2,594 bases of DNA from Dictyostelium discoideum. Taxonomy: Eukaryota. Shown here in pieces: positions 1-2,594 of this stretch. Numbering within the stretch: position 1 is the stretch's first letter; every line of letters begins with the position of its first letter. The stretch spans positions 1 to 2,594 of the forward strand of contig CH709149.1 in NCBI GenBank assembly GCA_000004695.1, read 5' to 3'. Under the pieces are notes generated by a model that had not been told where the DNA came from, made no database searches, and worked only from the letters and a program-made list of their open reading frames with translations. The translations under genes and the position numbers were made by a program.

Positions 1-420
1 TTCTTCCTTAATTTTATTTAAAAACGATTCATTGCATTGGAAATTATCATATTTACGAGATAAGAAATCAGCTATAAAATTCTTTTTACCACTTATATGT
101 CTTAATTCATAATCAAATTCTTTAATATATTTCATATAATTATCTTGTCTCTTTGTGTACGTTTTATCGTTTGACTTATTGATAATATATGTAAGATTTT
201 GGTGATCAGTGTAGATTGAAACCTTTTTACCAATTAATAAATGTTGAAACTTCTTTAGAGAATCAATGATTGAAAGGAACTCTCTATCACCTATGCTGTA
301 CCTCTTTTGAGTGTCAGTAAGTTTTCTACTGTGGAGCCAAATGACTTTGAATTTATCACCTTGAATTTGATATAATACACCTGATAATGCTTTATCACTA
401 ACATCACAATACAAGTGAAA
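1..420 (-). CDS. Partial pol polyprotein: RNase H domain plus the integrase N-terminal linker. It is truncated at both ends (N-terminal RT missing, C-terminus off the window).
   Basis: Same frame as above. Recognisable homology starts at 'FHLYCD' (codon covering 420-418). Codons further upstream (421-546) are read-through of the tRNA-flank repeat and are not part of pol. Confidence 0.75.
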
Positions 421-423
421 ACT
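1..423 (-). mobile_element. 5'-truncated Ty3/gypsy-type LTR retrotransposon fragment (Skipper/DGLT-A-like). It retains RNase H and the start of the integrase linker and continues past the left edge of the window.
   Basis: The minus-strand frame reading 438->1 has no stop (146 codons). It translates to ...FHLYCDVSDKALSGVLYQIQGDKFKVIWLHSRKLTDTQKRYSIGDREFLSIIDSLKKFQHLLIGKKVSIYTDHQNLTYII...RHISGKKNFIADFLSRKYDNFQ.... These are the three RNase H catalytic blocks (D in 'CDVSD', E in 'DREFLSII', D in 'YTDHQNL') followed by the canonical Ty3/gypsy 'GKxNxxADxLSR' motif that precedes the integrase. No RT-coding sequence lies upstream; composition changes abruptly at ~423/424. Confidence 0.8.
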
Positions 424-461
424 ACCCTTTTCAGAAGTTCCGCGGATGGAATGTTTTATAT

Positions 462-473
462 GGGAATCGAACC
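462..473 (-). promoter_or_regulatory. External B box (ex-B), a TFIIIC-binding-type motif downstream of the tRNA-like gene.
   Basis: The minus strand reads GGTTCGATTCCC, which matches the tRNA B-box consensus GGTTCGANTCC. It sits 57 bp beyond the internal B box and ~30 bp beyond the T6 terminator, which is the arrangement described for Dictyostelium tRNA genes. No terminator or acceptor-like sequence follows it, so it is not a second tRNA. Confidence 0.6.
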
Positions 474-502
474 TGAGACCTCCCTTTCCGGAAGTTCCGT
501 TT

Positions 503-508
503 AAAAAA
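503..508 (-). terminator. Pol III oligo-T terminator (T6) immediately 3' of the tRNA-like gene.
   Basis: The plus strand is aaaaaa at 503-508, so the minus strand is TTTTTT, directly after the predicted discriminator base at 509. Confidence 0.5.
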
Positions 509-581
509 TGTTGCATATGGAAATCGAACCCGTGACCTCTTACATTCTAAGCTATCTATCTACCATATGAGCTAAATAAGC
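509..581 (-). tRNA. tRNA-like Pol III gene, probably a decayed tRNA pseudogene, with a possible AAT (Ile) anticodon loop. The acceptor stem is not complementary.
   Basis: Minus-strand sequence: GCTTATTTAGCTCATATGGTAGATAGATAGCTTAGAATGTAAGAGGTCACGGGTTCGATTTCCATATGCAACA. The A box TAGCTCATATGGTAGA is at 559-574 and the B box GGTTCGATTTCC at 519-530. There are 53 nt from the 5' end to the T loop, as in a class-I tRNA, and a T6 run follows. However, the 5' arm GCTTATT does not pair with the 3' arm ATGCAAC, the T stem ACGGG/TCCAT is weak, and the D region carries a tagatagatag slippage. The overall pattern resembles tRNA-Ile(AAT) with many C->T and G->A changes. Confidence 0.5.
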
Positions 582-621: not shown

Positions 622-690
622 AAAAAAAGTGAGTAAGAAAAAAAACATCAACAACAACAACATTTTTCATATAAAAAAAAGACATAAAAA
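622..690 (+). repeat. Direct repeat copy 1 (~70 bp) with a (CAA)5 core and an A-rich tail.
   Basis: aaaaaaagtgagtaagaaaaaaaacatcaacaacaacaacatttttcatataaaaaaaagacataaaaataaaataaaa matches 797-880 at ~85% identity. Confidence 0.8.
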
Positions 691-796
691 TAAAATAAAA
701 TACACAAAGAGTAAATCATTGGCCTTCTTTATTTTAATGTAATTAATTTTTTCTTTTTTTTTGAAAACTTTGCGAAGGCAAATTGAAAAAAAAAAG

Positions 797-872
797 AAAA
801 AAATCTCAGTAAGAAAAAAACATCAACAACAACAACATTTTTATTGATATTTCATTTTCATATAAAAAAAGA

Positions 873-903
<31 letters not shown>
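797..903 (+). repeat. Direct repeat copy 2 (~75 bp plus a 16-bp internal insertion), ending in a pure A29 homopolymer (875-903).
   Basis: aaaaaaatctcagtaagaaaaaaacatcaacaacaacaacattttt[attgatatttcatttt]catataaaaaaagactaaaa... followed by 29 consecutive A residues. This looks like a retroposon oligo(A) tail. Confidence 0.8.
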
Positions 904-906
<3 letters not shown>

Positions 907-1257
907 ACCTCACTTATCAGAAATTTCAAATAATAAATGTCAGAGAGCATTTATCTCGATTGGTCAATAAACATTAAAATATTAACTAAGAAAAAGAATT
1001 CACCATATATATTAAATCCAACTTTGAAAAAAATTAAATCTCTTACGTATCTAGTAATACAATAGTAATCAGTTGCAAATCAGGATGGACAGGAGTTCAC
1101 ACCGACAGCATTCAAGTAGTTAGGGATGCTAGTAATTCATTCAAACAAACAAAAATAAAAAATTCCACAATTATTAGTATTACATCAAAATTTCCAGTTG
1201 ATCACAAAGAATATCTCACAACAATGTCCACTGAGTTAAAAAATAAATTCATCAAAT

Positions 1258-1737
1258 GTGAACCAGGAAATCAACCATTCTACCTTTACCCATATCGGAG
1301 TAAACACTGAATGGGAACCAGAATCTAAAATAAAAGCACTTAACGACTTCACTGTTATAAATATCACTAAATGGAAAATTTTAAAATATAAAGAATCTAT
1401 GGCCAAAGAAGAAAAAACCAATGAAAAACAACAAAAAACAAATAATAGTGACAATACATCTTTCACCTCTCCACCCAAAGATAAAGATGAACCATCACTC
1501 AATTTAAGTTCTCAATTCGAAGTTAGCATTTCTATGCTTAATACTGACTTTATCTTTGATGACTCTTCACCAATACCAAATAAATTATTAGAGCTGATTT
1601 CACCTGAACCAATTGTTTTTAGCATCAGAGAATTGGATTCTCCAACTAAAGATAACATACTAAATGAACTACTTTATCAACCAGAACAATCAATTTATGT
1701 TCCTCCTCCTCCCCTCCACCCCCTCCACCACAATTAA
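1258..1737 (+). CDS. ORF1-like hypothetical protein, Asn/Lys/Pro-rich. It probably needs a frameshift to join the frame-3 ORF at 1668-1978; the only in-frame ATG is at ~1399.
   Basis: This ORF comes from the six-frame track (it is GTG-initiated in the track). It ends in a poly-Pro/C-rich tract, tcctcctcctcccctccaccccctccacc. Third codon positions are A/T-biased, as in Dictyostelium coding DNA. No zinc knuckle or other motif was recognised. Confidence 0.35.
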   Translation: MNQEINHSTFTHIGVNTEWEPESKIKALNDFTVINITKWKILKYKESMAKEEKTNEKQQKTNNSDNTSFTSPPKDKDEPSLNLSSQFEVSISMLNTDFIFDDSSPIPNKLLELISPEPIVFSIRELDSPTKDNILNELLYQPEQSIYVPPPPLHPLHHN

Positions 1738-1978
1738 ACAAACCAAGCAGACCAAAATTCAACATTAAACAAAAAAAGATTAAAACGATCGAAGAAAATA
1801 TAGAGGAACACCTCAAAGATACTTTAAATAACTCATCAGAAACAATATCAACAAAGAGAAAATACCAGGAGGAGCCAAATCAAGAGAATGATCTCGAACA
1901 AATATCCACAATTATGAACAACAATTTACAAAAGATTAATAAAAACTTATCAATCTCACTAACTAATGAACACAAGTA
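1668..1978 (+). CDS. Likely continuation (C-terminal part) of ORF1 in frame 3, reached by a -1/+2 shift within the Pro-codon tract.
   Basis: Frame 3 is open from 1668 to the TAA at 1976-1978 (…PPPPPPQLNKPSRPKFNIKQKKIKTIEENIEEHLKDTLNNSSETISTKRKYQEEPNQENDLEQISTIMNNNLQKINKNLSISLTNEHK*). It overlaps the frame-1 ORF by 70 nt and has no ATG until 1912. Confidence 0.35.
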
Positions 1979-2148
1979 AGATAGCAATATGGAACGCCCA
2001 AGGACACAGCAAAGAAAAATGCACCTTTAAAGCCAATTTAAAGCAAATACAATTTAAATTTGCTTTAAATTGTGTAAAAGTCACTCACACTAATCTTCAA
2101 TCCATTGTCACATTTGTTCAATCTTTAATCAAACAGTCCAATCTTTAA
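1966..2148 (+). pseudogene. ORF2 remnant: the N-terminal 60 codons of an apurinic/apyrimidinic-endonuclease-like (APE) domain, after which the rest of ORF2 is deleted or decayed.
   Basis: MNTSKIAIWNAQGHSKEKCTFKANLKQIQFKFALNCVKVTHTNLQS...* The WN-x-x-G motif and a '..C.K.THtNL' block at the same spacing (~27 aa) as L1-type 'NINGL ... CIQETHL' support an APE start. The catalytic Glu position is Val. A stop follows at 2146-2148, and the remainder of the window is AT-rich non-coding. Confidence 0.45.
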
Positions 2149-2282
2149 AGTAATGTTTTTTAATATGAAGGATAGAAAGAGTGAAAGACTAATATCATAA
2201 AAGTAAACATACTTAAAAGAGATAATTAAAAGTAAGGGCGTTATGAGAACTAAACCGAAAATCAGAATTTTATTATTTTTTT

Positions 2283-2377
2283 TAAATTTTAATTTAATTT
2301 TTTTTTATTTAATTTAATTTTTTATTTTTCAACTGAAAAAATAAAAAATTAAAAAATAAAAATTAAAATTAAATGAA
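2283..2377. repeat. Long AT-only imperfect palindrome. A hairpin is centred on tttatttttc-AACT-gaaaaaataaa (centre ~2332), with arms of ~45 bp.
   Basis: The reverse complement of the left arm (gaaaaataaaaaattaaattaaataaaaaaaaattaaatt...) aligns with the right arm (gaaaaaataaaaaattaaaaaataaaaattaaaattaaat...) with a few indels. Confidence 0.55.
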
Positions 2378-2504
2378 ATATTTTTACATGGAGATGCGCG
2401 AATTTGTTACGTTGTTGAGCTCATACTAACTTTAAATTAATTTAGTTTTGAGTCTCTAACACCTTCCCCTTCCTTCTTTAGGCTAGCTTTGGCTTAGAGG
2501 TGGA

Positions 2505-2594
2505 CTATAATCTCTTCGGTGTAACTTTTCTTCCTGATCTTGTTGTTTTAATTTGTAAACTAAGATCAAGTTCATCATCATCACTTGAAGTATT
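2505..2594 (-). CDS. Possible C-terminal end (29 codons plus stop) of a minus-strand protein-coding gene that enters from the right edge.
   Basis: The minus frame reads ...NTSSDDDELDLSLQIKTTRSGRKVTPKRL* with the stop at 2507-2505. Third codon positions are strongly A/T-biased, as expected for Dictyostelium genes. It is very short, and a second frame is also open, so support is weak. Confidence 0.2.
   Translation of the reverse strand, partial: NTSSDDDELDLSLQIKTTRSGRKVTPKRL

Follow-up and report, generated by a model that had tools for sequence, protein, structure and literature searches.

The open reading frame of 60 codons located by an ORF scan of the window, the whole 2,594-nucleotide stretch of Dictyostelium discoideum DNA under study, runs from ATG to TAA at positions 1966-2148 of the plus strand, as reported in the preliminary description. 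Very probably it consists of the first 13 and about the last 23 codons of a TRE5 ORF2, after which the frame reads on into the end of a Skipper element unrelated to the TRE5. The best explanation, put forward with good confidence on the basis of sequence comparisons, is a TRE5 element that lost about 3.3 kb of its ORF2 in frame and was cut by the LTR of a Skipper element lying in the opposite orientation. The window as a whole appears to be a mosaic of D. discoideum transposon relics, in the apparent order Skipper pol fragment (minus strand), tRNA remnant (minus), deleted TRE5 (plus) and Skipper 3' LTR with the end of pol (minus). The entire stretch is AT-rich, the GC content per 200 bp being 16-39%. 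The 60-codon frame is plain transposon debris, and the element is of a known kind, a non-autonomous TRE5 with a deleted ORF2, akin to TRE5-A.2. The biological weight is little, as the window represents one more decayed nested retrotransposon cluster of a type long documented near D. discoideum tRNA genes and in repeat-rich regions. The features are collected in Table 1.

Table 1. Features of the window and their positions
Feature	Position	Strand	Remarks
Skipper-type (Ty3/gypsy chromovirus) pol fragment, RT-RNase H region	1..430	minus	truncated, without an adjoining LTR
Two tandem 57-bp units	425..538	minus	each with a B-box-like GGTTCGATT(C/T)CC; repeat family, 77% identity
tRNA-shaped remnant with A-box-like TAGCTCATATGGTAGA and B box	510..581	minus	from sequence; not a recognisable tRNA gene
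TRE5 5' UTR	632..936	plus	two A-module-like repeat units ~176 bp apart, A30 run at 874-903, short leader
Degenerate TRE5-type ORF1	937..1979	plus	six-frame translation, protein matches, alignment with L002
True TRE5 ORF2 start	1966..2003	plus	ATG and 12.7 codons, MNTSKIAIWNAQG; carries the first endonuclease motif
TRE5 ORF2 3' end, in frame with codon 13	2004..2072	plus	last ORF2 codons, HSKEKCTFKANL..., and the sequence after them
Skipper-type 3' LTR, 389 bp	2073..2461	minus	reads TGTTAGAGACTC...GACTTTTACA on the minus strand
Polypurine tract AAAGAAGGAAGGGGAAGG	2462..2479	minus	directly upstream of the 3' LTR; identical tract in L007 and in both L006 copies
Skipper-type pol, C-terminal 29 codons and stop (...NTSSDDDELDLSLQIKTTRSGRKVTPKRL, stop)	2505..2594	minus	from translation; runs off the window

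Upstream of the 60-codon ORF, three reading frames jointly encode a protein-like sequence of 300 residues broken by frameshifts. This ORF1 has its ATG at 937, at least two frameshifts (near 1268 and 1716) and stop codons within its first ~110 bp (937-1046). Comparison of the reconstructed ORF1 with D. discoideum proteins gave matches to P0001 (E=3.4e-117), P0002 (DDB_G0294178, strain AX4; E=2.1e-79) and P0003 (E=1.2e-54). The loci coding for P0001 and P0003, L001 and L005, were used as full-length TRE5 references. Both contain an ORF1 homologue and, after it, a long ORF2 carrying an RVT_1 domain, and in both the element's 5' end is located 45-50 bp from an opposite-strand tRNA gene, head to head (tRNA-Lys in L001 and tRNA-Glu in L005). 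TRE5 non-LTR retrotransposons are recognised in the literature by a 5' end near an opposite-strand tRNA gene (PMC3159450, PMC5391098). The 5' end of the window TRE5 (about 632) is found 50 nt from the tRNA-shaped remnant on the opposite strand, also head to head, and this remnant, which was called by neither ARAGORN nor Rfam, is presumed to be the original insertion target. ARAGORN and Rfam (E<=1) searches of the window returned no tRNA and no other RNA family. Direct repeats of the 5' UTR (D3-D9) were found by a repeat search, and a matching architecture is present in L001 (9636-10001) and in L005. A run of about 30 A separates the second A-module-like repeat from the leader of ORF1 in the window (874-903) and in L001 (9913-9941), its position being conserved. 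The run in the window is a feature of the family's 5' UTR and not the tail of a separate insertion. Compared to its paralog L002, the window ORF1 lacks 198 bp at 1431/1432 and 18 bp at about 1541, both deleted in frame. It also shows a +1 frameshift (GGAAAT vs GG-AAT) and, within its CCT/proline run, a -2 change (sites ~1268 and 1716); L002, for its part, is without window 876-1023.

The window ORF1 and the start of ORF2, which overlaps the end of ORF1 by 14 nt, are homologous to TRE5 elements. The window sequence MNTSKIAIWNAQG matches MNTINIAIWNVQG of the two full-length D. discoideum relatives, whose ORF2 proteins begin with MNTINIAIWNVQGASTINSASLVKTVLDSFNPDASIITETNIKQ... (L001) and MNTIRIAIWNVQGSSTITSASLTKTVLDKFDPDIALLTETNIKQ... 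(L005). When residues 1-13 were scored against the ORF2 of L001, none of 2000 shuffles reached the observed score. The DNA of the ORF2 start aligns to L001 11781-11818 and to L005 from 11385 onward, and the window, L001 and L005 agree through CAAGG (ending at window 2003), with complete divergence beyond. The first motif of the L1-type APE N-terminus (PF03372), hydrophobic-x-hydrophobic-W-N-x-x-G, is homologous in the window by way of the TRE5 ORF2 proteins, the N-terminal Asn motif (WN.xG) being present as IAIWNAQG in the window and as IAIWNVQG in the ORF2 of L001 and L005. The endonuclease-derived part of the 60-codon ORF appears to be these first 13 residues only.

From 2004 onward the window aligns to the opposite end of ORF2. 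Positions 2004-2072 matched a TRE5 3' fragment at L001 17220-17150 (blastn, 82% over 71 nt, E=5.5e-13) and, in a weaker alignment, L001 15130-15167, the end of L001's own ORF2. The match extends to the peptide in frame with codon 13, window HSKEKCTFKANL corresponding to HSKENHTLKSYL. In a comparison of window GHSKEKCTFKANL with the C-terminus of the L001 ORF2, ...LQLHSKENHTLKSYLNLISSPAWKSRKNQFLSNF before the stop, 19 of 2000 shuffles were at least as good. The in-frame match to the ORF2 C-terminus suggests that codon 13 was fused to the last codons of ORF2. The deletion at junction 2003/2004 amounts to 3311 bp in L001 coordinates (11819-15129), as mapped against relatives that are 78-81% identical in DNA, which makes the 3' breakpoint accurate to a few bases at best. 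A deletion of this size, ~3.3 kb, would remove essentially the whole endonuclease, the RT and the zinc finger. Compared to an autonomous TRE5, the window ORF2 is reduced to 13 plus ~23 codons without APE, RT or zinc finger; the LTR severs the 3' UTR at 2072, the poly(A) end lying beyond the window. The window copy is a non-autonomous, truncated TRE5 member.

The junction was also found at a second locus. The short-read contigs L002-L004, which code for DDB_G0294178, show 100% identity with the window over the 2003/2004 junction (window string GGAACGCCCAAGGACACAGCAAAGAAAAATGCACC), as far as the contigs extend (window 2033 or 2009). They depart from the window by roughly a dozen substitutions, by six indels, among them the 198-bp and 18-bp deletions of the window ORF1, and in their 5' structure, which indicates that L002-L004 represent another, paralogous copy and that the junction predates both. 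The window and L002 copies appear to have decayed independently of each other. The preliminary description had regarded the ORF as the beginning of an ORF2 from a non-LTR element associated with tRNA genes, lacking the RT and the remaining endonuclease and belonging to an internally deleted, non-autonomous element. The 13 residues matching the ORF2 of L001 and L005, the large ORF2 deletion and the junction common to a second copy bear this out in outline for a TRE5-type element. Alignment to full-length ORF2, which it had recommended for mapping the breakpoint, placed the breakpoint at 2003/2004 and not at 2148.

The joint at 2003/2004 could be explained differently, as the border of two TRE5 insertions: an older, heavily 5'-truncated copy of which only the last ~70+ nt of ORF2 and the 3' UTR are left, next to a copy that stops at codon 13 through 3' truncation or recombination. 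TRE5 tandems have been reported at tRNA genes (PMC5391098), two abutting TRE5 3' ends are present at L001 17150-17366, and 5' truncation is common among non-LTR elements. However, the two halves share both orientation and reading frame, neither a poly(A) nor the 3' UTR of an upstream copy is found at the joint, and the identical junction recurs in a second, structurally different copy, as expected for an inherited deletion but not for independent insertions. On the grounds of the shared frame and orientation, the missing poly(A) and the recurring junction, two abutting insertions were judged less likely than an internal deletion, and this explanation of the joint is considered improbable.

The TRE5 sequence ends at the boundary 2072/2073. 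AATTG is found at window 2068-2072, past which an uninterrupted TRE5 3' UTR would continue as GCTTTAAAGG..., and the other TRE5 3' fragment continues ...AAATTGGCTTTAAAGG at the point where the window switches to the LTR. Codon 36 (TGT) of the ORF spans 2071-2073, and codons 37-60 (VKVTHTNLQSIVTFVQSLIKQSNL) together with the stop are made of LTR sequence. By chance, no stop codon interrupts the ~23 codons derived from the 3' end of ORF2, and 24 LTR codons then follow until the first in-frame TAA. The reverse complement of 2073-2461 aligned end to end with both the 5' and the 3' LTR of a full-length element in L007, and equally with two L006 copies and the solo LTR of L001; L006 and L007 were retrieved through pol fragments. 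Window 2166-2594 showed 86-88% DNA identity to L006/L007 in reverse orientation, and blastn gave 86% over 296 nt for the LTR. The terminal 93 nt of the LTR are more diverged, yet none of 1000 shuffles was as good against the L001 solo LTR and L006, and the alignment reaches the terminal ...GACTTTTACA. A near-perfect, AT-only palindrome at 2288-2378 (42-nt arms, 83% complementary) was rejected as a special feature, as it corresponds to the AT-rich LTR core, which all aligned LTR copies share.

Beyond the polypurine tract, pol coding sequence was found on the minus strand at 2508-2594, with the stop codon at 2505-2507. The pol tail ...DELDLSLQIKTTRSGRKVTPKRL before the stop (RSGRKVTPKRL) is common to P0037, P0041 and P0043. 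A chromodomain in P0043 (PF00385, E=1.4e-4) scored below the Pfam cutoff, and the chromodomain region itself is beyond the window. These properties resemble those of Skipper-1, the D. discoideum Ty3/gypsy chromovirus, with its LTR of ~385-390 bp bounded by TG...CA, a polypurine tract preceding the 3' LTR, a chromodomain-bearing tail at the end of pol and many fragmented copies. The full-length L007 copy also has a polypyrimidine run after the 5' LTR, a trait described for Skipper-1 (PMC5006619), for which a chromodomain, the polypyrimidine run and heavy fragmentation have been published (PMC5006619, PMC5633606). The likeness to Skipper-1 is one of description, and the window LTR is ~86% identical to the other copies. 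Unlike Skipper-1, the second Skipper piece in the window (1-430) has no LTR beside it.

No endonuclease signal was observed beyond residue 13. When residues 14-60 were compared with APE domains, shuffles were at least as good in 1304 of 2000 cases for L001, in 1182 of 2000 for L005 and in 1319 of 2000 for human L1, and all three scores were at or below the shuffle mean. A Pfam search with the 60-residue product at E<=10 gave no match to PF03372, the profile that the preliminary description had proposed as a check, with a missing APE hit as its refuting outcome, and a spurious UTP15_C was the sole match; this search has low power, the full 357-residue N-terminal regions of the relatives' ORF2 reaching only 20-23 bits against a cutoff of 24.5 bits. 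With the same product, a search of PDB sequences returned nothing, a word-indexed homologue search returned no candidates and an exact-product lookup found no gene on record. An exhaustive phmmer search of 1.84 billion representatives resulted in three multi-stretch matches to bacterial-type repeat proteins and no endonuclease, and BLASTP against the best of these repeat proteins gave no alignment. Neither the catalytic Glu motif (ETN/ETH, ~28 residues downstream) nor the later D/N/H motifs were found, and the ORF stops at residue 60. The position of the expected Glu motif is occupied by DNA of the ORF2 3' end and then by Skipper LTR DNA. In comparison with an L1-type APE, the window ORF is without all catalytic motifs but the first, and what seems to be the second is encoded by the LTR.

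A mutated N-terminal piece of APE, comprising the first ~45 residues with the Glu changed to Val and with a deletion or truncation only after 2148, is highly improbable on these results. The spacing from WN to VTH, 29 residues, resembles that from N14 to E43 in L1, and genuine TRE5 ORF2 has 'IITETNI' 28 residues past the Asn, superficially like 'KVTHTNL' of the window. However, the ORF2 DNA homology stops at 2003, and 2073-2100, which encodes VKVTHTNL, is the conserved terminus of the Skipper LTR, present in five other copies. Moreover, residues 14-60 performed no better than shuffles against APE domains and were supported by neither Pfam, PDB nor the exhaustive phmmer search. The endonuclease pattern of 45 residues proposed in the preliminary description is retained for its first motif, homologous over 13 codons, and has to be abandoned for the remainder. 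The proposed second motif, C-V-K-V-T-H-T-N-L (2071-2097), is a chance resemblance, the DNA from 2073 being the terminus of a Skipper-type LTR, and a catalytic Glu replaced by Val has no meaning for a codon within that LTR. The sequence after 2148 had been regarded as AT-only and non-coding; it comprises the rest of the LTR (2149-2461, with the AT-rich core at ~2270-2390), the polypurine tract (2462-2479) and pol (2508-2594). A match of motif and spacing made by eye can come from unrelated in-frame LTR sequence, and mapping relative to full-length elements resolved the origin of the ORF where a domain HMM could not.

It is barely conceivable that a functional small protein is made from the 60-codon ORF, or that the chimeric region was co-opted, for example as a regulatory RNA. 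In favour of a function, the frame is open across two junctions. Against it, the frame extends for just 47 codons of AT-rich sequence past the first of them, the only significant relatives of the product are repeat proteins, no gene with this product is on record, the neighbouring ORF1 is frameshifted and no Rfam family was matched. The ORF has no function.

The window can be explained by the following series of events, starting from the internally deleted TRE5. A TRE5-type element would have been situated head to head ~50 nt upstream of a tRNA gene that has since decayed. The lineage of this element would have lost ~3.3 kb of ORF2, by which codon 13 was joined in frame to the last ~23 codons. 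The deletion may have arisen once, for instance when the reverse transcriptase switched templates or through recombination, and is probably older than the window copy. As the identical junction is present in a second, independently decayed copy, the deletion probably predates the copying. Copies with the deletion may have been mobilised in trans by the ORF2 protein of full-length elements, as documented for TRE5-A.2. The presence of the junction at two loci could also be due to a segmental duplication instead of retrotransposition of a deleted master copy. At a later stage, a Skipper-type chromovirus in the opposite orientation would have entered the 3' region of the TRE5 at 2072/2073, presumably by insertion and not by recombination; the far end of this Skipper copy, where a target-site duplication would be expected, is beyond the window, as is the rest of the TRE5 3' UTR. 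A frameshifted ORF1 and a severed 3' end would leave the window copy immobile.

The window, L001 and L005 form three lineages with 69-84% DNA identity. The primers Rep-190 and Rep-109Q for endogenous TRE5-A (PMC5391098 Table S1) were absent from the window, L001, L002 and L005 when up to 6 mismatches were allowed. The full-length relatives P0001 and P0003 carry Trp as ORF1 residue 10, compared to Ile in TRE5-A. The absence of the primers and Trp10 in the relatives suggest that the element is probably neither TRE5-A nor TRE5-A.2. A 3' duplication of the B-module, the defining trait of TRE5-A (PMC3159450), was found in neither of the full-length relatives L001 and L005. The window element is probably not TRE5-A and hence not TRE5-A.2 itself. 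It would belong to TRE5-B, TRE5-C or a variant, an assignment made by exclusion, TRE5-A being set aside on indirect evidence. TRE5-B and TRE5-C have the target position and orientation presumed for the window element and are reported to be without the 3' B-module (PMC3159450); L001 and L005, with ORF1 and an APE-RT ORF2, likewise have no 3' copy of a 5' module. The ORF1 of TRE5-B is reported to be only 25% identical to that of TRE5-A, a divergence that fits the ORF1 search returning no further family.

TRE5-A.2 is a non-autonomous deletion derivative of TRE5-A.1 with the layout AB-ORF1-BC, mobilised in trans by the TRE5-A.1 ORF2 protein (PMC3159450). Like the window element, TRE5-A.2 has repeated A-module-like units in the 5' UTR, an ORF1 and an ORF2 stub left by a ~3.3 kb deletion. 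TRE5-A.2 lies ~50 bp upstream of a tRNA gene toward which its 5' end points, as the window element would relative to its putative tRNA remnant. Unlike TRE5-A.2, the window and its relatives lack the TRE5-A primers, the relatives have Trp10, and the window copy is decayed and interrupted. The TRE5-A.2-type structure named in the preliminary description is appropriate in that the deletion derivative is of the same kind, but the element itself is probably not TRE5-A or TRE5-A.2. In the place of the BC region of TRE5-A.2, made up of a 3' B-module copy and a truncated C-module, the window 3' region past 2072 is displaced by the Skipper element. A TRE5-A.2-like 3' B-module at 2004-2148 was considered and rejected, as the 5' region is not repeated there in either direct or inverted form and the sequence from 2073 onward is LTR.

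No published deleted-ORF2 derivative of TRE5-B or TRE5-C was found in the papers available for this analysis. It is a tentative and rather doubtful suggestion that the window and the DDB_G0294178 locus form an undescribed non-autonomous subfamily of a non-A TRE5 (TRE5-B/C-like), characterized by the fusion of 13 and ~23 codons and amplified in trans. If true, the architecture of TRE5-A.2 would have had an independent, convergent origin, and ORF1, the ends of ORF2 and the UTRs might form, in more than one lineage of TRE5, the smallest unit that can be mobilised. The results hint at ORF2-deleted, TRE5-A.2-like derivatives outside TRE5-A, which, if confirmed, would bear on the parts of the TRE5 RNA needed for trans-mobilisation.

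The upstream Skipper fragment (1-430) was identified by PF17917 (E=1.3e-25) and PF17919 (E=4.8e-18) and is 96% identical in DNA to L007 4826-5254 and to L006 411-840; its protein matches include P0004. One predicted protein, P0033, joins the RT-RNase H region corresponding to window 1-430 with the pol tail. The Skipper pieces on both sides of the TRE5 have the same orientation and are two Skipper copies or one rearranged copy. The RT-RNase H fragment abuts the 57-bp tandem duplication and tRNA-like region in a joint without an LTR. The duplication repeats the B-box region of the tRNA remnant (425-581, minus strand), and the region may represent a tRNA gene that has decayed and whose B box is duplicated or external.

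In the N-terminal 357 residues of the L001 and L005 ORF2, PF03372 was matched from residue 9 with 20.2 and 22.9 bits, respectively. The complete endonuclease regions (L001 11781-12851 and L005 11385-12455) are thereby below the PF03372 gathering cutoff, and precomputed domain tables for the two ORF2 proteins give RVT_1 only. With scores under the cutoff, routine annotation would miss the TRE5 endonuclease domain. The TRE5 3' ends at L001 17150-17366 are of different subfamilies and abut in opposite orientation, one being an L001-type ORF2 end, HSKENHTL..., and the other, ERFSKQWNSPLH..., being of the L005 type and carrying a poly(A) tail. The solo Skipper LTR of L001 (10779-11137) is located inside ORF1 of the full-length TRE5 and has a 5-bp target duplication, GAGTG. 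Removal of the LTR and one copy of GAGTG restored the TRE5 ORF1 reading frame. In the public gene model P0001 this solo LTR is spliced out as an intron, resulting in an artificial protein.
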